From NCBI GenBank assembly GCA_938028625.1, contig CALIZB010000003.1:12103-76102 (forward strand): 64,000 nt of DNA, given 5' to 3'. Source of the DNA: an uncultured Bacteroidia bacterium (GTDB lineage: Bacteria; Bacteroidota; Bacteroidia; JANWVE01). Both the position numbers and the translations under genes were made by a program. This document shows positions 636-20,181 of this stretch, one piece after another. How positions within the stretch are numbered: position 1 is the stretch's first letter; each line of letters begins with the position of its first letter. The notes under the pieces are model-generated. The model saw nothing but the letters and a program-made list of their open reading frames with translations. It was not told the DNA's origin and searched no databases.

Positions 636-783
636 ATGAATTTTTTGCAAAAATAAAGTTTTTTTCTGTATTACAAAAACTTGCCTGTTGCAAATTTGGC
701 GTTATGCCAAAGACAAATTCCATTTGATAGCTATTTTACTTTACTTTGTCATGTTTGTATAAGCAGGTTACAAAAATATAAAA

Positions 784-791
784 TATATTTG
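784..791 (+). promoter_or_regulatory. Bacteroidota sigma-A -7 box (TAnnTTTG: tatatttg) upstream of the M61 peptidase gene.
   Basis: The motif tatatttg lies 23 nt upstream of ATG 815, and a TTG is present about 20-30 nt further upstream. Confidence 0.3.
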
Positions 792-814
792 CAGTAATAA
801 TACAGCACAAGCTT

Positions 815-2632
815 ATGTATACAAAACATTTTTCTTTTCTTTTTTTAGTGCTTTTCAGTACTTTTTTTTCCTTTGGGCAGGAGAAATACCAATGTAGTAT
901 TGACCTAAATGACGTACAAGATAAAAAAATCAAAGTAAGTATCATCACCCCCAAAAATATAAAGGGAAAGTATATTTTTCAGTTTCCTAAAACAGTACCC
1001 GGTACGTATGCAAATTTAGATTATGGCAGGTTTATTAGTAATTTTCAAGCTTTTGATAGTAATAATCAGCCTTTACCTGTAAGCAAAAAAGAACCTAACA
1101 CTTTTATTATTTCAGGAAAGAATTTAAGTAAAGTTACTTATGAAGTAAGTCCTTCATGGGATACTCCCGTAGATAAAAATGCAATCTTTGAACCCGCAGG
1201 TACTAATTTTGAAAAAGATAAATGCTTTATTTTTAATCAAGGGGGAGTATTCGGATATTTGGAAGGCGCTATGATGTTGCCTTATGAAGTTACCATTACG
1301 CACCCTAAACATTTATTCGGAGCGTCAGGAATGGAAGTTGCTCGTAAAGATAGCCTCACTGATATATGGAAAGCCCCAAGCTATGTACGATTAGTAGATA
1401 ACCCAATTATGTATGCACCTTTAGATACTGCTATTCTTAAAGTTGGAAAAACGGAAATTCTTATTTCTTGTTATTCTATGGATAAAAATATCAATGCCAA
1501 AGCGCTTGTGCCTTCCATAGAACCTACTGTAAAAGCGTTACAAGCCTTCTTAAAAGAACTTCCTGTTAATAGATACGCATTTTTGTTTTATTTTAGCCAC
1601 TTGTTTAGTAGTAACTCACGTACAGGTGCATTTGGCGCACTAGAACATTCTTATAGTTCTCTGTATTATTTGCCTATAATGCCAATCTCAGCAGTGGTCA
1701 GACAGGTAAACGACGTAGCTTCACATGAGTTTTTACATATTATTACTCCGCTTAACCTGCACAGCCGAGAGATTCATGAGTTTAACTTTTCCAACCCTAA
1801 AATGTCCCAACATTTATGGCTGTATGAAGGCAGTACAGAGTATTATTCCCACCTCATTCAGTTAAAGGCAAAAATGATAGATTTAGATGACTTTTTCCGT
1901 GAAATACGAGGTAAAATTGAAGCCGCCAACATGATGCCCCGAGATATGAGCATGACAAAAATGAGTGCCAATGTATTAGACGAGAAATATCATAAAGCAT
2001 ACAGACACGTATATGATAAAGGCGCTTTACTTTGTATGGGATTAGATTTAGAAATTATGCGCCTTACACAAGGCAAAATGACCCTCCGTAAAGTAATAGA
2101 ACAACTCTCTAATAAATATGGTGCAGAACGTCCTTTCGAAGACAATAAACTTTTTGGTGAAATTGTTGCACTTACGCACCCTGATGTCAAAAAGTTTATA
2201 GACAAGCACATTTCAGGTACAGAACCCTTAGACTATGCGGCATTATTTAAAACAGTGGGTATTCGTTATGAGAGGCTTGGCAAGATAAGAGTTGCTTCTC
2301 TCGAGGCCAGTGGTATAGAACTCGGCATGCTGAACAGTTCCAAAACCCAGATTACCAAAGACTGCCCTGAATACGGCTTAAAATACGGAGACTTTGTAAA
2401 GTCTATCAATGGGATAGAAATATCTATTTTTACTGCTATGACTATTGGAGAAGAAATTAAATCCAGCGCAGGAAAACCTATTAAAATTGTAGTAGAGCGT
2501 GATGGAAAAACTATTGAAGTAGAAAAGCCACTAAAAGTTGTAGAAGATGATGCTTCTCATGTTTTTGTATTAGAAGATACCAAAGACCCTGTTGTCTTGC
2601 AATGTCGTAAGGTATGGATGACGAATGAATAA
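815..2632 (+). CDS. Peptidase M61 (glycyl aminopeptidase-like) zinc metallopeptidase with a C-terminal PDZ domain.
   Basis: The 605-aa protein has a signal-like N-terminus, an HExxH motif (VASHEFLHII), a downstream EGSTEYY glutamate, and a C-terminal PDZ-like segment (GDFVKSINGIEI). Confidence 0.55.
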   Translation: MYTKHFSFLFLVLFSTFFSFGQEKYQCSIDLNDVQDKKIKVSIITPKNIKGKYIFQFPKTVPGTYANLDYGRFISNFQAFDSNNQPLPVSKKEPNTFIISGKNLSKVTYEVSPSWDTPVDKNAIFEPAGTNFEKDKCFIFNQGGVFGYLEGAMMLPYEVTITHPKHLFGASGMEVARKDSLTDIWKAPSYVRLVDNPIMYAPLDTAILKVGKTEILISCYSMDKNINAKALVPSIEPTVKALQAFLKELPVNRYAFLFYFSHLFSSNSRTGAFGALEHSYSSLYYLPIMPISAVVRQVNDVASHEFLHIITPLNLHSREIHEFNFSNPKMSQHLWLYEGSTEYYSHLIQLKAKMIDLDDFFREIRGKIEAANMMPRDMSMTKMSANVLDEKYHKAYRHVYDKGALLCMGLDLEIMRLTQGKMTLRKVIEQLSNKYGAERPFEDNKLFGEIVALTHPDVKKFIDKHISGTEPLDYAALFKTVGIRYERLGKIRVASLEASGIELGMLNSSKTQITKDCPEYGLKYGDFVKSINGIEISIFTAMTIGEEIKSSAGKPIKIVVERDGKTIEVEKPLKVVEDDASHVFVLEDTKDPVVLQCRKVWMTNE

Positions 2633-2650
2633 AACTACTACGCTTACAGT

Positions 2651-4345
2651 ATGCTGACTGCTATTAAAATTAAGAATTTCAAGGTATTTGAAGAAACAGA
2701 CTGGATACCTATTCAAGGCAATGTTGTATTTATCGGACCTAATAATTCAGGTAAAACCACTATTCTACAAGCTTTGTCTTTATGGCACTATGGCTTACAA
2801 AAATGGATATCGCAAAGAAAAAATAGTAAAGCCGTTAGCGCAGTAGTAATGAATAGAAAAGATTTATATGCTATACCTATTTTACATTCAAGGCATATAT
2901 GGAACAGGTTTTTTACACATAAATCTCAAAAAAATACAAATCAAAAAAGTAAAACTGCACTTTTTAATAACATAGAAATTAGCGTAAAAGGTATCCATGA
3001 GAATAAAGAATGGACTTGTACTCTTGAATTTAGATACAATAGTTCAGAAACTATTTATACAAAACTGATTGAAAAATCATTAGATTATGACGTATTAGAA
3101 AAAATTCAGATTGCTTTTTTACCCCCTATGTCGGGGCTAAAATTGGAAGAGGAAAAGTTATTATTTTCTACCGTAGAAGCAAGAATAGGTGAAGGTAGAA
3201 CTGCCGAAGTACTTGGTAATTTATTTTATCAGGTATGTTATCCTGAGTCTGATGTACTGCGAAAAAATAGAAACCCTGAGGAAGATTGGAAATATATTCA
3301 ACAAACAATCAAAGAATGGTTTAATGTAGAACCTCAAAAACCTGAAATAGACAGCAGAGGTGCTATAAAAATAAAATACATCAATGCTGATAAAATTGAA
3401 ATGGAAATCAATTCAGCAGGTAGAGGTATGCAACAAATTTTACTTTTACTCTCCTATCTAATGCTGAAGCCTAATACAGTATTTTTATTAGATGAACCTG
3501 ACGCACATCTTGAAATTCTTAAGCAAGAACAGATATACAAGTTACTCTCTCATTTAGCAAAAGAAAAAAAATCTCAAATTTTAATAGCTAGTCATTCAGA
3601 GGTAGTCTTAAATCAAGCCGCTTCTAACCAAGATACTGTAATTGCAGTTCTACCTTTTAGCAAACCTGTCGTAATGGAAAAAACTAGCCATATTCTCAAA
3701 TCTCTCAAAACTATTCCGATTAGTGAATACTATTTAGCTCAACTCAGAGGCTGGATTTTATACACAGAAGGTACTACTGACCGGAATATCTTAATAAAAT
3801 TCGCAGAAAAATTAAATCACTCTGTTTTACCTTACTTAAAAAATTGTTTTCACAAACCTTTGAATATCAATGACCCTAATAAAGCTCGTGAACATTTCTC
3901 TGCTTTACAATCCGCATACCCTAAACTGATAGGCATTGCTGTATATGATAACATCTCTAATTCCCTAAATACCATGTCTGGACTTTACGAGGATATGTGG
4001 CGCAAACGTGAAATAGAAAATTATTTTTATAGTCAAGATACTTTATTAAAATGGGCATTAGGTAAGCAAAACGATTTATTCGCTTCTAATAATGAGAAAG
4101 CTATTCAGGACGCATTAGATGATGTATTGACAGGTGCGGCTAAAAAAAACCCAAAAGATGAGTATTGGAATACTTGTAAAGCAAGTGAAGAAATAGAAAA
4201 AATACTAAGAAAATACTATGAAAACCTTAACATATATGGAAATACTTCAAAAAATAATTTTATAGAATTGATAGATTATCAATGTGAATTTGACCCTGAG
4301 ATTACAGAGAAATTAAACTTCATTTATGAACATATACCCAAATAA
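2651..4345 (+). CDS. Fused ABC-type ATPase (AAA_15/AAA_21) plus C-terminal Toprim-like (DUF4435/DUF4276-like) domain. Candidate class-1 OLD-family nuclease or fused PARIS AriAB-like defence protein.
   Basis: Walker A is GPNNSGKTT, Walker B with D-loop is VFLLDEPDAHLE, and the H-loop is IASHSEV. The C-terminal half carries a Toprim-type acidic motif WILYTEGTTDRNIL, similar to CEGKTEQNF of the DUF4276 protein at 18828. It then has AVYDN and REIENYFY. It is a single gene wedged between two peptidase genes with 18-bp and 51-bp spacers. Confidence 0.6.
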   Translation: MLTAIKIKNFKVFEETDWIPIQGNVVFIGPNNSGKTTILQALSLWHYGLQKWISQRKNSKAVSAVVMNRKDLYAIPILHSRHIWNRFFTHKSQKNTNQKSKTALFNNIEISVKGIHENKEWTCTLEFRYNSSETIYTKLIEKSLDYDVLEKIQIAFLPPMSGLKLEEEKLLFSTVEARIGEGRTAEVLGNLFYQVCYPESDVLRKNRNPEEDWKYIQQTIKEWFNVEPQKPEIDSRGAIKIKYINADKIEMEINSAGRGMQQILLLLSYLMLKPNTVFLLDEPDAHLEILKQEQIYKLLSHLAKEKKSQILIASHSEVVLNQAASNQDTVIAVLPFSKPVVMEKTSHILKSLKTIPISEYYLAQLRGWILYTEGTTDRNILIKFAEKLNHSVLPYLKNCFHKPLNINDPNKAREHFSALQSAYPKLIGIAVYDNISNSLNTMSGLYEDMWRKREIENYFYSQDTLLKWALGKQNDLFASNNEKAIQDALDDVLTGAAKKNPKDEYWNTCKASEEIEKILRKYYENLNIYGNTSKNNFIELIDYQCEFDPEITEKLNFIYEHIPK

Positions 4346-4383
4346 AACTCTCAATAAAAGTTTATTCTCAATCATATTGTTTA

Positions 4384-4391
4384 TACCTTTG
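4384..4391 (+). promoter_or_regulatory. TAnnTTTG -7 box (tacctttg) immediately upstream of the DPP-IV gene, implying a very short or absent 5' UTR.
   Basis: The motif ends 5 nt before ATG 4397. Confidence 0.3.
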
Positions 4392-4396
4392 CACTT

Positions 4397-6556
4397 ATGA
4401 AAAAAAATATTCTTTTTATTTATATTTCTCTTTTACTGTACTACGGATATTCTCAAAATGGTAGTAAAGAGATAGTTTTAGAAGATATTTGGTTAAAGTA
4501 CACATTTTATCAAAAACGCCCCAGTGGTATTAATTGGATGAAAAATAGCAAGTATTATTCTGATTTATTAGAAGGAGGCATAATTGCTAAATATGATGTT
4601 ACCACAGGAAACAAGATAGAAGACCTTTACAAAAATGAGGCTAGATTAGAAATTGAAGACTACAACTTTAATGAAGATGAAAGTAAGATATTAGTTAGTA
4701 CAGCATCAGAACGTATCTATCGCCGTTCTTCAAAATACAATTTTCACGTTATTGATGTAAGAACACAAAAAGCAGTCCCTTTATCTAAAAATGGCAAACA
4801 AATGCACGCCACTTTCTCACCCAATAGCCAAATGATTGCTTTTGTAAGAGATAATAACCTGTATATCAAAGACTTAAATACAGATAAGGAAATACAAATT
4901 ACCAAAGATGGCAAATCAAATGAAGTTATCAACGGCAGCGCAGACTGGGTATATGAAGAAGAATTTAGTATGTCCAAAGCATTTCAGTGGTCGCCTGATG
5001 GGCAGAAACTTGCTTTTATCCGTTTTGATGAAAGTAAAGTAAAAGAATTTTCTATGACAAATTGGGGAAAACTTTATCCCGAAGAATATAAATTCAAATA
5101 TCCCAAGGCAGGAGAAGCTAATTCTATTGTAACCGTATGGATTTATGATGTTAAATCTAAAAAACTTTTACAAGTAGATACAGGTAAAGAAACAGATATG
5201 TATATACCCCGAATTTATTGGACAAAAGATAACAGATTAGCTTTTTTACAACTTAATCGCTTACAAAATGAAATAAATTTATTTTTTGTAGATACTAAAA
5301 CAGGAAAATCTACACTCATTTTACAAGAAAAATCTGATACCTACATTGACCTCAACAACACTGATTTTCTGCGCTTTTTAGAGAATGGTAAAGAATTTAT
5401 ATGGGGTTCAGAACGAGATGGGTTCATTCAACTCTATTTATATGATATTCAAGGTAATCTCATTCGCAGAATAACGGACAACAAAGGAGATATTACGGCA
5501 CTTTCTTATATTGATGAAAAAAAACGGCTTATTTACTATATCTCGGCAGAGGTAAGCCCATTAGAAAGGCATCTATTCAGGATTGATTTTGAAGGTAAAA
5601 ATAAAGTTCAACTTTCTACACAAGCAGGTACAAACAGTGTAAACGTCAGTGAGGACGGACAGTATTATATTCTTTTTCATACTGCGTCAGATAGTCCTTT
5701 AAGAGCTACTTTGCATACTTCGGAAGGAGCTATTATTCGCACTTTGGAAGATAATGCAGAACTTCGCAAACGCTTGCAGGAATACAGTTTTTCTCCAAAA
5801 GAATTTTTCAAGTTTACGACTTCACAAAACATAGAACTCAACGGCTGGATGATAAAACCCAAAAATTTTGATGCATCTAAAAAATACCCTGTGATTATGT
5901 TTGTTTATGGCGGACCTGGTAACCAAACCGTAGAGAACATGTATGACAATTTTGACTTTTTCTGGTATCAGACTTTGGCACAAAAAGGTTATGTTATTGT
6001 ATCCGTAGATAACCGCGGTACTGACGGCAGAGGAGCGGCTTTCAAAAAATCCACCTATAAAAATCTTGGCAAATTAGAGTGCGAAGACCAAATAGAAGTA
6101 GCTAAATATTTAGCTTCACAATCTTGGGTAGATAGCAAACGTATAGGTATCTGGGGCTGGAGTTTTGGCGGGTACTTAACCTCATTATGTATGACCAAAG
6201 GCGCGGATTATTTCAAAGCAGGTATTGCTGTTGCGCCTGTAACCAACTGGCGTTACTATGATACTATTTATACAGAACGTTTTTTACAAACTCCCCAACT
6301 TAATCCCATAGGTTATGATGATAATTCTCCTATTACACACGCAGGTAAAATGAAAGGTAAATATCTCATTATTCACGGTACAGCTGATGATAATGTTCAT
6401 TTTCAGAACGCCGTAGATTTTGTAGATGCACTTATTAAAAATAATGTACAGTTTGAAAGTTTTTATTATCCTAACCGAAATCACGGAATTTATGGTGGAA
6501 ACACAAGATATCACCTATACAGAATGATGACTAATTTCTGGATAAAAAACCTATAA
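4397..6556 (+). CDS. Dipeptidyl-peptidase IV (S9B family prolyl oligopeptidase), secreted.
   Basis: The 719-aa protein has a signal peptide and a DPPIV N-terminal propeller region (WSPDGQKLAF). The catalytic serine motif is GIWGWSFGGY, with Asp and His downstream (GTADDNVHF). Confidence 0.85.
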   Translation: MKKNILFIYISLLLYYGYSQNGSKEIVLEDIWLKYTFYQKRPSGINWMKNSKYYSDLLEGGIIAKYDVTTGNKIEDLYKNEARLEIEDYNFNEDESKILVSTASERIYRRSSKYNFHVIDVRTQKAVPLSKNGKQMHATFSPNSQMIAFVRDNNLYIKDLNTDKEIQITKDGKSNEVINGSADWVYEEEFSMSKAFQWSPDGQKLAFIRFDESKVKEFSMTNWGKLYPEEYKFKYPKAGEANSIVTVWIYDVKSKKLLQVDTGKETDMYIPRIYWTKDNRLAFLQLNRLQNEINLFFVDTKTGKSTLILQEKSDTYIDLNNTDFLRFLENGKEFIWGSERDGFIQLYLYDIQGNLIRRITDNKGDITALSYIDEKKRLIYYISAEVSPLERHLFRIDFEGKNKVQLSTQAGTNSVNVSEDGQYYILFHTASDSPLRATLHTSEGAIIRTLEDNAELRKRLQEYSFSPKEFFKFTTSQNIELNGWMIKPKNFDASKKYPVIMFVYGGPGNQTVENMYDNFDFFWYQTLAQKGYVIVSVDNRGTDGRGAAFKKSTYKNLGKLECEDQIEVAKYLASQSWVDSKRIGIWGWSFGGYLTSLCMTKGADYFKAGIAVAPVTNWRYYDTIYTERFLQTPQLNPIGYDDNSPITHAGKMKGKYLIIHGTADDNVHFQNAVDFVDALIKNNVQFESFYYPNRNHGIYGGNTRYHLYRMMTNFWIKNL

Positions 6557-6581
6557 TAACCATAAAAATAAAACTTTTTAC

Positions 6582-7553
6582 ATGATTTCAGTAATTGGTG
6601 GAGGAAGCCTTGCCACAGCCTTAGTAAATATATTAGCACAGCATAGTACAGTACACTGGTGGATGCGAGACCCTAATCAAGCCGAACACATCAGAATACA
6701 CAGACAAAATCCCAAATATCTCCCTGATTTATACATACCAGAAAATATATTTCCTACTCATGAATGGGATAAAATACTTGAAAACACCGAAGTTATGTTT
6801 TTGGTTGTGCCGTCTGCTTTTCTCAAAAGTGTTCTACCTGATACTCTACCTCAAAATATACTGTATGTCAGTGGCATAAAAGGTTTACTATATCCTGAAA
6901 ATCAAACAGTTTCACAATATCTTACGCATAAATACCACGTTCCAGAAAGTCAAATAGTAGTTTTTAGCGGACCTTCGCATGCAGAAGAAATTGCCCAGCA
7001 TCAACTTTCTTATTTGCATATCGCGGGTACAAGTACGATACATTTACAAAAAATACAGAAACTATTAACACAATATTATCTGAAAACGACACTCACCGAA
7101 GATATACTCGGTATAGAATATCTTGGTGCTATTAAAAATATCATGGCATTAGGTATGGGCATCATCAACGGATTAGGTTACGGAGATAACTTCAAAGCTA
7201 CTTTTTTTACCTTTATTATTAAAGAAATACAACAGATATTGCAGTTTTTGTGTCCTGATACAGAGAGAAATATATTAGACAATGTATATCTTGGTGACGT
7301 GCTTGTTACCTGTTATAGTCAGTTCAGTAGAAACCGTATGTTTGGCAACATGATAGGCAAAGGTTATTCTGTAAAATCGGCACAGTTAGAAATGAATATG
7401 GTTGCCGAAGGATATTATGCGTTACAAGGTATTTACAGTCTGTTACAAAGTAAAAAAACAGAGTTTTCTATTGTTGAAATGCTGTACAAGATTATATATG
7501 AATTTGCACCTCCCCGTAAAACTGTACAAAAATGGATAGAAACGCATCTATAA
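6582..7553 (+). CDS. gpsA: NAD(P)H-dependent glycerol-3-phosphate dehydrogenase (divergent GpsA).
   Basis: The N-terminal Rossmann motif is VIGGGSLATAL. Other conserved GpsA matches are GPSHAEE, GAIKNIMALGMGIINGLGYGDN, TCYSQFSRNRMFG and SAQ...VAEGY. Confidence 0.75.
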   Translation: MISVIGGGSLATALVNILAQHSTVHWWMRDPNQAEHIRIHRQNPKYLPDLYIPENIFPTHEWDKILENTEVMFLVVPSAFLKSVLPDTLPQNILYVSGIKGLLYPENQTVSQYLTHKYHVPESQIVVFSGPSHAEEIAQHQLSYLHIAGTSTIHLQKIQKLLTQYYLKTTLTEDILGIEYLGAIKNIMALGMGIINGLGYGDNFKATFFTFIIKEIQQILQFLCPDTERNILDNVYLGDVLVTCYSQFSRNRMFGNMIGKGYSVKSAQLEMNMVAEGYYALQGIYSLLQSKKTEFSIVEMLYKIIYEFAPPRKTVQKWIETHL

Positions 7554-8311
7554 CCCCTAAAATTGCTGTTTTATTGGATAAACTATATGAAAAATATCAT
7601 ACTACTGATTTTATTTTTGATGACCCTATATCTATTCCTCACGCATATACCCAAAGGCAAGATATAGAGATTACAGGTTTTTTTGCCTCTATACTTGCCT
7701 GGGGACAACGCAAAACTATCATAAATAAATGTAAAGAACTTTTTACCCGCATGGACAATGCCCCGTATCAGTTTGTACTACATCATACAAAAAAAGATTA
7801 TAAACACTTGCAAGGATTTAAGCATCGTACTTTTAATGAAATAGATTTACTTCATTTTGTATCGCAATTACAGCAAATTTATCAAGAATATGATAGTTTA
7901 GAACCTTTATTTACAGTAGAACACACAGAGGATAATGTACAATCTGGTTTGGTGAAATTTCATAAAGCATTTTTAAATAATGCACCTTTACGCACACATA
8001 AACATATCAGCACACCCATTAAAAACAGTGCTTGCAAACGAATAAATATGTTTTTGCGATGGATGGTACGTCAAAACAGCTCTATAGACTTTGGATTATG
8101 GACAAAAATACAACCTTCACAATTAGTTTGTCCATTAGATATACATGTACATCGCGCTGCTGTACAATTAAAGCTGATAGATGAAAAAGACGCTTCTACT
8201 TGGAAAACTGCTATAAAACTCACAGAAATTCTTAAAACTTTATCTCCCGATGACCCTGTAAAATATGATTTTGCTCTTTTTGGGTGGAGCAGATATGAAC
8301 TTGAAACATAA
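7532..8311 (+). CDS. TIGR02757 / DUF2400 family protein.
   Basis: The 259-aa protein carries the DPISIPHAY...FFASILAWGQRK signature typical of the Bacteroidota TIGR02757 family. It overlaps the gpsA 3' end by 22 nt. Confidence 0.5.
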   Translation: MDRNASITPKIAVLLDKLYEKYHTTDFIFDDPISIPHAYTQRQDIEITGFFASILAWGQRKTIINKCKELFTRMDNAPYQFVLHHTKKDYKHLQGFKHRTFNEIDLLHFVSQLQQIYQEYDSLEPLFTVEHTEDNVQSGLVKFHKAFLNNAPLRTHKHISTPIKNSACKRINMFLRWMVRQNSSIDFGLWTKIQPSQLVCPLDIHVHRAAVQLKLIDEKDASTWKTAIKLTEILKTLSPDDPVKYDFALFGWSRYELET

Positions 8312-10042
8312 TTACACCTCTTCCCAATATATTTTATCTTTAACAATTACTACTGCTATTGATTTTAATTTTTGAAGGGTTTTAAGTTCTGCGTCTACCG
8401 TTAAATACTTTTTGAGCTGGTTTTTGGCTAATTCCATAATTTTTGATAACCTACTTTCTTCGCTTTGTTTTAGATACTTGATTTCTAACACATATTGATA
8501 CGGTTCTGCGGATAAATCAGAACGTTTTAGAACTTCTAAATCTAGGTATCCTTCATTTTTTACCTCTCGCTCTGAACGAATGTAATAAAATGAAGCATGA
8601 TGTAAATATGCCATCATTAACGCTTTTATGTATTTTTCATCAAATCTTTGATAATCCCGATTAGATAAGTTTTCTAATATACGCTGTATCTCCTTAAAAA
8701 ATAATTCTATATTCCCATACGCGCATGCTTCTACACTCTTTTCTATGCTGTTAGTGTCATATTTGAGTATCGCTTTTTCTTGTATCACTAACGCATAATA
8801 CTGCCAAAATAAACGCCCTATCACAAAATTAGGTATCATAAAATTAGGATAACCAGTCTGAGCATCTATTCCAGATAAAGTTAAATTTCCAAGATAATAT
8901 AAAAAATTGATAAATGCGGTTCTATCAAATGGTTTTTCAAATAAAAATTGATATAACAATGGACAACTAATTTTATCATTTTCTAAAATTTCTTGTAATA
9001 CTTCTATATTCTCTGCATAGTTTGCTACCTCAAACAGCTTCATTAACTTACCATAATCAGGCATAATGTTAGGGTCTAACATCTCTCTCGGATAAGATTG
9101 TTTGTACTTAAAAGCATCTAAAAAATATAAAACCATATCGGGATTATAGAGAGTATGAGTTATTTCTGGATTAAACTTATATCCATTATACCATTTTCTT
9201 AAATCATTCATTATTCTGTCTTTTTGGTTATTATCAATTAAAACTAATTCTAAAAAATCTTTTACTTCATCTTCTACAAAACCAAGCATATCATGAAATA
9301 CCTCATTATTAGACAAGTGTTTTCCAATATTAAATCCGCTGGTAAGACTATCCATGGTCATAGGGGATACTCCTGTAATGAAAAATCTATCTACTATACC
9401 CTGTTGTGTGGCTATTTTTAGAGTTTCATAAAACTTACGAACATACCCATTTTGAGATACAGAACGCTTGAACTCTGCTAAATCACGTACTAATATCTCA
9501 TTCGTAAAATGTTCATATTCATCTATTATTACATATATGGGTGTGCTATCGTTATTTTGTTTTTGCCATGCATCATAATACTCAAAAAAATTATCCATTA
9601 AGTTAGCAGGAGAACTAGATAATAAAATACTCTCAACAATATCAGCACAAAATAAATTATACCGATACATAAAATTTTTGAGAGTATGTTTTAACTTGCT
9701 TAAAAAGTATTTGTAAGTATGTTCTTCTGTTTGTGTGTCAATACCACTGAAATCAAATTTTAATACTCGGTATTGATTAGCTAATGAAGTAGGATTTTTT
9801 CCAATGTAATACTTTGAAAAAATACCTTGAAAGTTGTTCTTTTCTAATATATCATAATAATACTCCAATATAGATACAAAAAGACTTTTTCCAAATCGCC
9901 GAGGTCGTAAAAAAATCACGTATCTTTCTTCCTCTTCAAGTTGTTCTATATACTTTGTTTTATCTACAAAAACATAGTTGTTTTTTGTAAGTTGTGCAAA
10001 ATTACTGATACCATACGGAAATTTTATACGCGGTCTATCCAT
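8312..10042 (-). CDS. Predicted AAA-ATPase (PF09820-like) fused to a C-terminal PD-(D/E)XK nuclease domain (PDDEXK_9-like).
   Basis: The N-terminal signature is YGISNFAQLTKNNYVFVDKTKYI...FLRPRRFGKSLFVSILEYYY. The C-terminal region has E/D/K residues (YVLEIKY). This architecture is common and multi-copy in Bacteroidota. The stop abuts the convergent TIGR02757 gene with zero gap. Confidence 0.7.
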   Translation of the reverse strand: MDRPRIKFPYGISNFAQLTKNNYVFVDKTKYIEQLEEEERYVIFLRPRRFGKSLFVSILEYYYDILEKNNFQGIFSKYYIGKNPTSLANQYRVLKFDFSGIDTQTEEHTYKYFLSKLKHTLKNFMYRYNLFCADIVESILLSSSPANLMDNFFEYYDAWQKQNNDSTPIYVIIDEYEHFTNEILVRDLAEFKRSVSQNGYVRKFYETLKIATQQGIVDRFFITGVSPMTMDSLTSGFNIGKHLSNNEVFHDMLGFVEDEVKDFLELVLIDNNQKDRIMNDLRKWYNGYKFNPEITHTLYNPDMVLYFLDAFKYKQSYPREMLDPNIMPDYGKLMKLFEVANYAENIEVLQEILENDKISCPLLYQFLFEKPFDRTAFINFLYYLGNLTLSGIDAQTGYPNFMIPNFVIGRLFWQYYALVIQEKAILKYDTNSIEKSVEACAYGNIELFFKEIQRILENLSNRDYQRFDEKYIKALMMAYLHHASFYYIRSEREVKNEGYLDLEVLKRSDLSAEPYQYVLEIKYLKQSEESRLSKIMELAKNQLKKYLTVDAELKTLQKLKSIAVVIVKDKIYWEEV

Positions 10043-17718: not shown

Positions 17719-18831
17719 ATGCCCATAGATAGAATATCCGTATACAATTTTAAGTCTATTCAAGAGCTTGAAAATTTTAGCATTAAACCTATAAATATAC
17801 TCATAGGGGCTAATGGTGCAGGAAAAACAAATTTTATTGAGTTTTTCAAGCTATTACACCACATATATCAAAAACGATTACAATTTTACACTGCTCAGAA
17901 TGGTTATGCAGATAGAATATTATTCATGGGTAGAAAAAAATCTTCATTTTTAGGTGGAGAGATTATTTTTAGACCTGATGCAAAAAGCAATACATCTAAC
18001 ACTTATAAATTCAAAATTGTACCACAGACACATGCAGATAACTTTTATTTCGAGGAAGATTTGGCAGGATATAACATATATGCTATGGGATATAATGAGT
18101 CTTGGGACTATAAAAACGCAGGTGGAGAAGGTAAGTTAGAAAGTGAAATAATACATAACTATGAACTTACACGCATGGATTTTTTGCGAAACTACTTCAA
18201 TACATTCAGAATTTTTCATTTTCATGATACTACCCCTAATTCCCCCCTAAAACAACCTTGTAACATAGAAGATAACGAATATCTCAAAGAAAATGGAAGT
18301 AATCTTTCGGCTTTTTTATATTCTATCAGGCATACTTCTGAGTTTAATATGATACAGTACACCATTCAAAGTATAGCACCATTTTTTGAACGCTTTGAAC
18401 TATACCCCAGTGCCAAAAATGAAAATATGATTTCACTCAATTGGGTACACAAAAATGCTGAAAATTATTTCAATGTACATAGTCTCTCTGATGGCACATT
18501 AAGGTTTATTGCCTTGACTACGTTGCTTTTACAGCCTAATCCACCTAAAACTATCATTATTGATGAACCTGAATTAGGTTTACATCCTACTGCTATTTAC
18601 AAATTAGGAGAAATGATAAAAATGGCATCTACAAAATCTCAGGTTATCGTTTCTACACAATCACCGTATTTGGTAGATATATTTGAACCCGAAGATATTA
18701 TTGTAGTAGAGAGAGAAAATAACCAAAGTATATTTAATCGTTTATCTCGTTTGGAATTGGCAGAATGGTTAGAAAAATACACTATTAGTGAACTTTGGGA
18801 TAAAAACATTATAGGAGGACTTCCCCGATGA
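17719..18831 (+). CDS. AAA_21-type ABC ATPase (an OLD/PARIS AriA-like ATPase component).
   Basis: Walker A is GANGAGKTN, the signature-like motif is LSDGTLRFIAL, and Walker B with D-loop is IIIDEPELGLHP. A Q-for-H H-loop is VIVSTQSP. The stop overlaps the downstream ATG (ATGA), indicating translational coupling. Confidence 0.8.
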   Translation: MPIDRISVYNFKSIQELENFSIKPINILIGANGAGKTNFIEFFKLLHHIYQKRLQFYTAQNGYADRILFMGRKKSSFLGGEIIFRPDAKSNTSNTYKFKIVPQTHADNFYFEEDLAGYNIYAMGYNESWDYKNAGGEGKLESEIIHNYELTRMDFLRNYFNTFRIFHFHDTTPNSPLKQPCNIEDNEYLKENGSNLSAFLYSIRHTSEFNMIQYTIQSIAPFFERFELYPSAKNENMISLNWVHKNAENYFNVHSLSDGTLRFIALTTLLLQPNPPKTIIIDEPELGLHPTAIYKLGEMIKMASTKSQVIVSTQSPYLVDIFEPEDIIVVERENNQSIFNRLSRLELAEWLEKYTISELWDKNIIGGLPR

Positions 18832-19432
18832 ACCCTATTTATGTACTTTGTGAAGGAAAAACAGAGCAAAATTTTGTCAATCAAATTTTGGGAGAGTATT
18901 TGTATAATAAATACCAAATAGAACGTATCTATGGTATTATGGCAAATACAAGCAAAAACGCAAAGGGCGGTAGTTTATCTTATTCTAGGTATAAAAATGA
19001 AGTTCAGGATTTGTTAAAAAGAGAGGAAAATGCCATAATAACTTCTCTGATAGATTATTACAAATTACAGACGGATTTTCCTGATTATACTGCCATACAA
19101 AGCACAAATATTCAGGATAAAGCAGAGAAAGTTTCGCAATTAGAGCAGTCCATAGCAAGAGATATTAAGCATAAACGCTTTTTACCTTATATTCAGTTAC
19201 ATGAATTTGAGGCTTTATTATTCTCTTCTATAAATGGTTTTGATAACCTTGTTGGCTTAGATTTAAAGAAGAAAAAACAGATAGAGAAAATAATAACTTC
19301 ATATCATAATCCTGAATATATCAATGACGGTCAGGATACACACCCGTCAGCAAGGTTAAGCTAACTTATTCAAGGATATAGAAAACTGCTATTTGCAGAG
19401 CAAATTATTAAGCAAAGTGGTATGGATAGTAT

Positions 19433-20181
19433 GGTATTGCTAATTTAGTATAGTTTTTTTTATTTTGCAACTTTATTACTCTAATTCATTTGACTATGAA
19501 GACATGCCCAAAATGTAAATCTATTAATTTCTGTAAAGATGGTATAGTAAAACAAAAACAGCGTTTTAAATGCAAAGATTGTAATTTTCGCTTCACCGTG
19601 CAAGAAGTAGGAAAACCTGCTATCCTTAAAAGAAACGCCTTAACTTTATATCTTGAAGGTTTAGGGTTTCGCTCTATTGGGAGACTTTTGGGTGTCAGTA
19701 ATGTAACAGTTATGAACTGGATAAAATCTTTTGGAGAAAAAATTGATGAATTAAGAAATAATTCAGATATTGAAATTGTGGAGATTGATGAATTGCATAC
19801 CTTTATCGGTTCAAAAAAAAGTATCAATGGATTTGGATTGCTGTTGATAGAAATGGGCATCAATTCATCACTTGTGAAATTGGCAGTAGAGGAACAGAGA
19901 CAGGGGAAAAACTTTGGAAAAGAATTGAAAGTAAAATAAAAGATAAAGTATGTACTGATTATTGGAACGCATATGAAAAATTTGTTCCAAAAGAAAAGCA
20001 CGTACAAAGTAAAAAAGAAACATTTACAGTAGAAGGATATAACAGTCTCTTTCGGCATTTTTTAGCGCGTTTAAGGAGAAAAACAAAATGTTATTCAAAA
20101 TCACTAACAATGCTTCTACATTCTGTAAAATTATTAATGTTCAAATGGAATAACGATTTATCTATACTTTTTTAGCAATAC
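19433..20181 (+). mobile_element. IS1-family insertion sequence (749 bp) with 21-bp imperfect terminal inverted repeats and an 8-bp target-site duplication (gatagtat).
   Basis: IRL is ggtattgctaatttagtatag (19433..19453). IRR is ctatacttttttagcaatacc (20161..20181). The direct repeat gatagtat flanks both ends (19425..19432 and 20182..20189). Inside is an InsA-like zinc-finger/HTH ORF and an InsB-like DDE ORF in the -1 frame. Confidence 0.85.
19490..20172 (+). CDS. insAB: IS1 transposase InsAB', produced by a programmed -1 frameshift at the A8 run 19813..19820. InsA alone is 19490..19939.
   Basis: InsA has the zinc-finger CPKCKS...CKDC and an HTH. The -1 frame reads KKKYQWIWIAVDRNGHQFITCEIGSRGTETGEKLW...HVQSKKETFTVEGYNSLFRHFLARLRRKTKCYSKSLTMLLHSVKLLMFKWNN. 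This aligns with E. coli IS1 InsB (QRWLFYAYD...[39 protein letters not shown]). Confidence 0.8.

Follow-up and report, generated by a model that had tools for sequence, protein, structure and literature searches.

A predicted ABC ATPase-Toprim fusion protein of the OLD/PARIS kind in an uncultured Bacteroidia bacterium

A 64,000-nucleotide (nt) stretch of DNA from an uncultured Bacteroidia bacterium (contig CALIZB010000003.1; the whole stretch is hereafter called the window) encodes a 564-amino-acid (aa) protein that very probably joins an OLD-type ABC ATPase to an AriB/OLD-type Toprim fold on a single chain. The pairing of an ABC ATPase with a Toprim domain is among the most widely reused modules of prokaryotic immunity, found in OLD, Gabija, PARIS and retron effectors. 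Both putative active sites of the family to which the window protein belongs are under near-absolute purifying selection. We think it reasonably probable that this protein is an ATP-gated conflict nuclease of the OLD/PARIS group that acts against phage or mobile elements, a reading that draws on the genomic company kept by its relatives.

Domain architecture and putative active sites

Sequence and structure comparisons both point to a two-domain protein. The open reading frame (ORF) begins with ATG, and the N-terminal half of the protein matches Pfam AAA_21 (2.6e-21), AAA_15 (8.4e-17) and SMC_N (2e-12). A full-length AlphaFold2 model, computed from a 104-sequence alignment (A2), has a mean predicted local distance difference test score (pLDDT) of 89. 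When the whole chain was compared with the PDB by Foldseek, the top match was the class 1 OLD of Thermus scotoductus (Ts OLD 6P74; E=2.5e-15, 636 columns). Alignments to Ts OLD, GajA and the retron Eco8 OLD cover both domains (about 630-660 columns), whereas those to PtuA and SMC heads reach only about 400 columns.

The OLD family is reportedly defined by the combination of an ABC ATPase and a Toprim domain, a definition said to go back to Aravind in 1998 and Schiltz in 2019/2020. The N-terminal half of the window protein contains each ATPase residue expected of this family, with Walker A lysine K35, Walker B acids D281/E282 and H-loop H315 (Table 1; conservation counts here and below refer to 172 distinct full-length members, aligned from A2 and the ORFs of fetched loci). 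A beta-rich and short helical insertion occupies about residues 60-225. In a sequence search the protein matches Ts OLD 6P74, and it is recognised by the PADLOC defence ATPase models NsnB (6.7e-26), AriAB (3e-13) and Old (9.4e-11), as well as by mad3, AbiLi and GajA; the ATPase also matches the HEC-01A/HEC-02A models. NCBIfam returned sub-threshold ATPase matches only, and its transporter models reached 25-37 bits against cut-offs of 130-830.

The C-terminal half adopts a Toprim fold in the models. Modelled alone (pLDDT 90.9; predicted template modelling score 0.87), it forms a four-strand Toprim core followed by a helical subdomain. Of its 229 residues, 177 align to AriB, and the helical domain is thus partly common to AriB. 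Comparison with other known structures gave scores of 7.8 for the C-terminal region of the Burkholderia class 2 OLD, 7.1 for PH0156, 7.0 for Ts OLD, 6.6 for retron Ec67, 6.0 for the retron Eco8 OLD and 5.5 for GajA. As modelled, the domain is an OLD/AriB-type Toprim with AriB as its nearest relative.

Conserved residues are placed where a Toprim nuclease would have them. Within the motif WILYTEGTTDRNIL (residues 368-381), E373 directly follows strand 368-372 and D377 lies four residues on, the arrangement expected of the OLD family. The position of the canonical Toprim DxD is held by D433: its +2 neighbour is hydrophobic and never acidic, while the +3 residue is acidic in 106 of 172 members and serine in the window protein. 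W450 is conserved in 172/172. Two lysines of the helical domain, K534 (nt 4250-4252; 172/172) and K510 (nt 4178-4180; 167/172), may correspond to the catalytic Lys/Arg known from OLD nucleases (K562 of Bp OLD, R487 of Ts OLD). These lysines, like E454 and E456, were matched to known ligands by order and spacing rather than by superposed coordinates, and we treat their roles as putative.

Profile searches see little of this half, whose link to Toprim proteins is made only by structure and by faint matches from some relatives. Residues 323-564, taken by themselves, gave no PADLOC match and none to a relevant Pfam family. OLD-like_TOPRIM (PF20469) does not match the window protein and readily finds phage P2 Old, our positive control (1.2e-17, residues 389-455); it is grazed by two of 26 diverse C-terminal domains from the family, with E about 0.07. 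PADLOC models matched by more than one of these 26 were solely AriAB (4/26, best 9e-5) and AriB (4/26, best 6e-4). An hhalign comparison of the full-length family profile with P2 Old was weak (E=3.8e-4, probability 36%). The alignment nonetheless stays collinear: it begins at the signature, takes in Walker B and the H-loop, and reaches the first Toprim strand, where the family's LYLEGsTDl falls on LLVEGKTETN of P2 Old, in register with the start of its Toprim. A profile of the 26 C-terminal domains (A3) had one match among PDB sequences, Cullin-5, which lies in the helical part and was discarded as spurious.

These results bear on an earlier, sequence-only reading of the window, which had described the gene as a fused ABC ATPase and Toprim-like protein. 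Its coordinates for the gene and the two flanking gaps were exact, and translation confirms every ABC motif that it listed. The EGxxD motif that it singled out is not a chance occurrence, both acids being invariant, and its proposal of a Toprim-like C-terminal half agrees with the modelled fold. The profile searches that it recommended were answered in part: AAA_15 and AAA_21 match the protein, while DUF4435, DUF4276 and OLD-like_TOPRIM do not match its C-terminal half.

A patchy family with restriction-modification neighbours

A word-indexed search recovered full-length relatives of 564-623 aa and 38-73% identity from Bacteroidota, Planctomycetota, Chloroherpetonaceae, Fibrobacterota and Methanospirillum, publicly named only 'AAA family ATPase' or 'ATP-binding protein'. 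An exhaustive search of 1.84 billion proteins with the C-terminal profile yielded 1,050 representatives at E<=1e-3 (676 at <=1e-10, 235 at <=1e-30), counted after clustering at 50% identity. Among the best 150 matches, every complete protein is 546-615 aa long with the domain at its C-terminus; shorter matches look like contig-end fragments. The distribution is patchy, and members from Bacteroidota, Planctomycetota and Methanospirillum share about 40% identity.

Most family loci have no conserved partner. The members P0023, P0037, P0060, P0063, P0081 and P0108, for example, are solitary among unrelated housekeeping genes. P0018, by comparison, sits in a restriction-modification (R-M) operon, overlapping an N6_N4 methyltransferase gene (Mod) upstream and a ResIII/RE_endonuc gene (Res) downstream, near a RES toxin gene. 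With the aim of removing selection bias, we fetched 80 metagenome loci with the C-terminal profile and clustered all flanking ORFs. The sole recurrent non-syntenic neighbours were an N6_N4 methyltransferase cluster (12 loci) and a ResIII cluster (8 loci), with identities confirmed by Pfam, and they occur in several gene orders (Table 1). Of the 93 family loci (677 kb), 16 contained Mod/Res homologs; the 80 DPP-IV loci that served as controls (1,047 kb) contained none (Fisher p=2.7e-5). In this comparison the queries were drawn from the family's own loci, the controls come from other taxa and a small number of loci are duplicates. This solitary majority and substantial R-M-embedded minority agree with published accounts in which class 1 OLD genes occur singly (PMC10568477, PMC12392090) and OLD-ABC/Toprim modules are recruited to R-M-like systems (PMC12839542).

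Members of the family also occur on viral contigs. IMG/VR contains two with full-length members of 580 and 575 aa (L095 6987-8729 and L096 2130-3857). One of these members is flanked by genes for a phage tail protein and a C5 methyltransferase; the other has a terminase gpA, a TET-associated glycosyltransferase and an N6_N4 methyltransferase nearby.

Several loci showed further features. Directly 5' of the operon that holds P0018, a gene for a RES-domain toxin and a 97-aa ORF that probably encodes the antitoxin occupy L003 2986-4087; together with the operon they form a small defence island adjoining dnaG. In L143 (4011-10647) the R-M operon also contains a second AAA_21/AAA_15 ATPase (363 aa) and a 219-aa ORF downstream of it, so that two OLD-ABC-type modules are stacked between Mod and Res in one restriction operon. 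A tblastn match to the family in L159 (5001-5663, within 749-8527) lies between an N6_N4 methyltransferase and ResIII; this region has no full-length ORF, only short ORFs of 87-236 aa, and is probably a decayed copy in an R-M operon.

Other apparent associations were set aside. A 577-aa AAA_15/SMC_N ORF two genes 5' of P0023 was considered as a paralog and proved RecN-like, unrelated beyond the P-loop. The idea of twin ATPases flanking the S9 peptidase of that locus (L005) was dropped, and the peptidase adjacency was judged coincidental. A neighbour of about 1,150 aa upstream of the gene in four loci is the methionine synthase MetH, a case of synteny among related organisms.

The gene in the window

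The gene follows an M61 peptidase gene (Peptidase_M61_N and Peptidase_M61) that ends at 2632, leaving 18 nt, and precedes a DPP-IV gene (DPPIV_N/Peptidase_S9) that starts at 4397, leaving 51 nt. An ortholog with 73% identity, P0002, occurs in the same order of M61, gene, DPP-IV, GPDH and DUF2400; its start overlaps the stop of its M61 gene, and the flanking genes of its locus are 73-84% identical to those of the window. The shared slot fits vertical co-inheritance across a roughly genus-level divergence. The 80 DPP-IV loci of representative Bacteroidota genomes are all at most 56% identical and have no neighbours in common with the window, and the synteny around the gene is therefore lineage-specific.

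The sequence-only reading had taken the tight wedge between two peptidase genes for a small accessory insertion. Nothing measurable favours this: the ortholog occupies an identical slot, the gene ranks 10th of 26 long ORFs by codon-usage distance from the window mean, its G+C content is only slightly low (31.2%, against 34.7% for the window), and the 18-nt gap has no room for a promoter element. An old insertion event may still lie behind the arrangement, the comparison having taken in the P0002 locus, which carries the gene, and the 80 more distant DPP-IV loci.

Transcription signals likewise present the gene as part of its surroundings. We scanned for TAnnTTTG, which we take to be the Bacteroidota -7 promoter consensus, and found elements 5' of M61 and of DPP-IV (Table 1) that are consistent with -7 boxes and very short leaders. 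The + strand is free of them between 1204 and 4384, including the stretch just upstream of the gene; a terminator scan found no + strand terminator-like site. M61 and the gene therefore probably share a transcript from the element at 784, and the element at 4384 suggests that DPP-IV can be transcribed separately. A sigma-70 promoter scan was uninformative (40 sites against 35 expected). In sum, the window copy is stand-alone, stably inherited, well integrated and ordinary.

A variable spot does exist nearby, at 8312-10042 on the - strand. There, after DUF2400, the window encodes a protein of 576 aa that matches AAA-ATPase_like (PF09820, 2.7e-49) and the nuclease family PDDEXK_9 (PF08011) and no PADLOC model; the 73%-identity relative (L001) has an SBP_bac_5 gene on the other strand at this position.

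The window contains a second ATPase/Toprim module, as the sequence-only reading had said: an AAA_21 ATPase gene and an overlapping DUF4276 gene (17719-19364), which we regard as a two-gene candidate defence module resembling HEC-01. DUF4276 is reported as a Toprim (PMC12065111). The same reading had called the EGxxD motif of the fused protein close to that of DUF4276, a likeness that does not extend to profiles: hhalign detects no similarity between the family's C-terminal profile and the window's DUF4276 protein, and the motif resemblance therefore holds only at the level of the Toprim superfamily. The DUF4276 ORF stops at position 149 of 192 of the DUF4276 profile and at 184 of 230 of HEC-01B, so its C-terminus is apparently truncated. 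About 125 nt downstream, at 19490-19939 (+), an InsA-like zinc-ribbon/helix-turn-helix ORF of insertion sequence (IS) type follows, and its presence suggests that the truncation was IS-mediated.

Table 1. Features of the gene and of the window (positions in the window), followed by gene orders of R-M-linked family loci (X, family member)
Feature	Position or locus	Strand	Evidence or conservation
Whole gene: predicted fused OLD-type ABC ATPase and AriB/OLD-type Toprim nuclease	2651..4345	+	ORF, Pfam, full-length model, Foldseek
ABC ATPase domain, residues 1-330, OLD-ABC/AAA_15-AAA_21 type	2651..3640	+	Pfam, PADLOC, Ts OLD sequence match, model, Foldseek
Walker A / P-loop GPNNSGKT (K35)	2735..2758	+	translation; G29, N31, G34, K35 172/172
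ABC signature-like SAGRGMQQ	3413..3436	+	translation; G257, G259, Q262 172/172; R258 171/172
Walker B VFLLDE and D-loop PDAHLE, VFLLDEPDAHLE	3479..3514	+	translation; D281, E282, H286, L287, E288 172/172
H-loop ASHSE (H315)	3587..3601	+	translation; H315, S316 172/172
Toprim core, residues 366-460	3746..4030	+	strands 368-372, 400-403, 427-432, 445-449, helices between
EGTTD: Toprim E373 ending strand 1, D377 four residues on	3767..3781	+	both 172/172
D433 ending strand 3, Toprim DxD position, lone invariant Asp	3947..3949	+	172/172
REIENY after strand 4; E454, E456 candidate second-metal ligands	4007..4024	+	E454 172/172; E456, N457, Y458 171/172
C-terminal helical domain, residues 461-564	4031..4342	+	helices in both models
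TATATTTG, candidate -7 promoter element, 31 nt 5' of M61 start	784..791	+	motif scan
TACCTTTG, candidate -7 promoter element, 13 nt 5' of DPP-IV, in the 51-nt gap	4384..4391	+	motif scan
AAA_21/AAA_15 ATPase of second module	17719-18831	+	PADLOC HEC-01A 1.5e-131
DUF4276 protein, overlapping the ATPase	18828-19364	+	DUF4276 9.6e-36; HEC-01B 8.6e-58
Mod-X-Res	L003/L004, L097		
Res-X-YhcG nuclease-Mod	L141		
Mod-X-...-AAA_21 ATPase-...-Res	L143		
Mod-X	L130, L142, L163, L174		
Res-X	L118		
HsdM-...-X	L176		

Proposed function and comparison with known systems

We favour a role in conflict because Mod/Res genes adjoin family members in several gene orders, members occur on phage contigs and the family is patchily spread. 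In the mechanism that we propose, the ABC ATPase, which has the full catalytic set, would probably form an ATP-sandwich dimer, hydrolyse ATP and serve as both sensor and gate. The trigger would be a protein from a phage or mobile element, or else some disturbance of a partner restriction system, and the resulting conformational change would license the metal-dependent Toprim nuclease to cut nucleic acid. Candidate activities are DNA nicking, as suggested by analogy with class 1 OLDs, and tRNA cleavage as by AriB, with the closer structural likeness to AriB hinting at an RNA or tRNA substrate. Infection would then be halted, possibly at the cell's cost, as in abortive infection. The antiphage role put forward in the sequence-only reading is thus plausible from the family-wide Mod/Res and phage-contig context, and the window itself demonstrates none.

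A number of observations weigh against the conflict role. The canonical Toprim DxD is down to one Asp, D433; Foldseek E-values of the isolated C-terminal domain are marginal (0.02-0.25); and DUF4435, OLD-like_TOPRIM and every PADLOC Toprim model fail on the C-terminal half of the window protein. The window holds no defence-related gene near the gene, whose surroundings are housekeeping, whose position is conserved in a relative of roughly genus-level divergence and whose composition is ameliorated. The family is conserved unusually well for a defence gene (mean column identity 48%), and tblastn with the C-terminal domain found no match among catalogued phages and plasmids. Precedents exist as well: the OLD-family protein Cran1 is a cell-cycle protein, not a defence protein (PMC12796447), and the Toprim domain of E. 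coli YbjD is reportedly dispensable (PMC13261556).

Some of these points equally suit a domesticated housekeeping ATPase-nickase engaged in DNA repair, replication or chromosome handling, as with archaeal Cran1 (PMC12796447), which we consider unlikely. The stable slot among housekeeping genes shared with the 73% ortholog, the host-like codon usage, the probable co-transcription with M61, the high family conservation and the lack of matches on catalogued phages and plasmids would all be expected of such a protein, and in seven of the eight contig contexts examined for distinct members the gene stands by itself among metabolic genes. A housekeeping role sits poorly, however, with a family so small and patchy (1,050 representatives in 1.84 billion proteins), with members that remain about 40% identical in distant phyla and an archaeon, as though spread horizontally, and with the gene's absence beside DPP-IV, the one locus tested, in 80 other Bacteroidota genomes. 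The recurrent linkage to Mod/Res and other defence genes in multiple orders and the two phage-borne copies speak against it too.

A more specific proposal is somewhat less likely still: that the family constitutes a separate, unnamed OLD class, a permanently fused AriA-AriB-like guard of R-M systems. Taken as one joint and doubtful proposition, the guard would sense phage anti-restriction or Mod/Res failure and answer with Toprim cleavage, possibly of tRNA; it would be a stand-alone, vertically inherited chromosomal gene in the window lineage; and its single-Asp site and canonical signature would make it a mechanistic variant of both PARIS and class 1 OLD.

The Toprim-like domain might also be no nuclease at all. 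The Toprim domain of RecR is a nucleic-acid-binding or regulatory module, and a comparable module could here accompany an ATPase that carries the biological activity. The missing second DxD acid and the silence of nuclease Toprim hidden Markov models (HMMs) lean this way, as does the report on YbjD (PMC13261556). Yet E373, D377, D433, E454, E456, K510 and K534 are kept in 167-172 of 172 members, a pattern typical of an active site rather than a binding surface, and the order and spacing of four of AriB's five metal-site residues recur in the family. We judge this reading improbable. The least credible reading makes the protein an ordinary ATPase of ABC transport or peptide metabolism that serves the flanking peptidases. 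The fold, and the fact that neither peptidases nor permeases are conserved next to the family's genes, effectively refute it: the shared strand and tight spacing with two peptidase genes, relatives named 'ABC-type ... transport system ATPase' by JGI and the S9 peptidase that P0023 too adjoins are outweighed by the absence of any nearby membrane partner or permease gene, by top structural matches to OLD, GajA, PtuA and SMC heads rather than transporter nucleotide-binding domains, by the Toprim fold of the C-terminal half, by peptidase adjacency that is not kept across the family and by NCBIfam transporter scores far under cut-offs.

The architecture and likely role are those expected for the superfamily, and the window copy shows no local peculiarity and no local evidence of activity. 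What is new is a branch of about a thousand sequence clusters, spanning Bacteroidota, other bacterial phyla and one methanogen, whose nuclease half is unrecognised by current Pfam and defence-system HMMs. Defence-system finders probably overlook the family, which a dedicated profile would remedy. Repeated insertion between mod and res offers a testable lead on co-operation between OLD-type sensors and restriction, and a naturally fused AriAB-like protein provides a system for asking how an ATPase gates a nuclease that it does not release.

In PARIS, Ocr-like triggers are sensed by a hexamer of AriA; it then sets free AriB, the enzyme that cleaves tRNA-Lys. The acidic residues of AriB are E26, D30, D88, E90 and E122 (PMC11464382); E373, D377, D433 and E454/E456 track E26, D30, D88 and E122 by order and spacing, the E-x3-D pair agrees and the E-to-D distance is 60 residues in the family against 62 in AriB. 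Only E90, the second acid of D-x-E, is without a counterpart. Occasional fused AriAB proteins (class 4 OLD; PMC11464382) likewise carry their ABC ATPase and Toprim on a single chain, and the recurrent R-M-operon placement would fit the PARIS logic of backing up restriction. Differences from PARIS are equally clear. A fused chain cannot release its nuclease from its ATPase, and activation would therefore have to be conformational. There is no Pfam DUF4435 match, and the window protein's C-terminal half matches no AriB/AriAB model. AriA is not among the top 50 whole-chain Foldseek matches, which Ts OLD, PtuA, GajA and SMC dominate, and the window gene has no satellite or prophage context.

Class 1 OLDs (P2 Old, Ts OLD and Vibrio cholerae OLD) provide the other close comparison. 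Ts OLD is the top whole-chain structural match, E-x3-D ends strand 1 as E377/D381 do in Ts OLD, and the alignment with P2 Old is collinear between the signature region and the EG motif of the Toprim. Like them, the gene stands alone, with no helicase, reverse transcriptase (RT) or fixed partner, a minority of the family lying in Mod/Res operons. Unlike the window protein, P2 Old matches OLD-like_TOPRIM. In class 1 OLDs the ABC signature has degenerated and residues of the Walker B, Q-loop and D-loop vary (PMC7049728), whereas the family's SxGRGxQQ signature-like motif and canonical Walker B D-E are invariant and its DxD is reduced to a single D. The ligands of Ts OLD are E377/D431/D433 and D381/S478/E480, with R487 (PMC7049728); we compare E454/E456 of REIENY with S478/E480, and likewise with AriB E122. 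Ts OLD is without a sizeable C-terminal helical subdomain and uses a loop Arg (PMC7049728), where the family has an invariant Lys.

Other relatives are more distant. The UvrD-like GajB helicase of class 2 OLD (Gabija) is absent beside the gene in the window and in the examined family loci; no recurrent UvrD-like cluster appears in 93 family loci, the recurring helicase-like partner being ResIII of R-M, and the sequence match to GajA is confined to the ATPase. The peptidase neighbours and gaps of 18 and 51 nt leave no room for the RT and noncoding RNA of a class 3 retron. AbiLi/AbiLii and HEC-01 likewise pair an AAA_15/AAA_21 ATPase with a Toprim-superfamily effector, but in two genes, and their RloB/DUF4276 parts show no detectable similarity to the family's C-terminal domain.

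The phrase 'class-1 OLD / fused PARIS AriAB-like', used in the sequence-only reading, holds for the class 1 context and the AriB-nearest fold; it does not extend to the OLD-like_TOPRIM and DUF4435 models or to a full DxD, and for these reasons we place the protein outside both named families. It represents an unannotated subfamily of the known OLD/PARIS kind and is not categorically new. Classed by context, the window gene, which encodes ATPase and Toprim together, is a class 1 OLD. Judged by its domains, it has a nuclease half closest to PARIS AriB and therefore also fits the fused AriAB reported occasionally.

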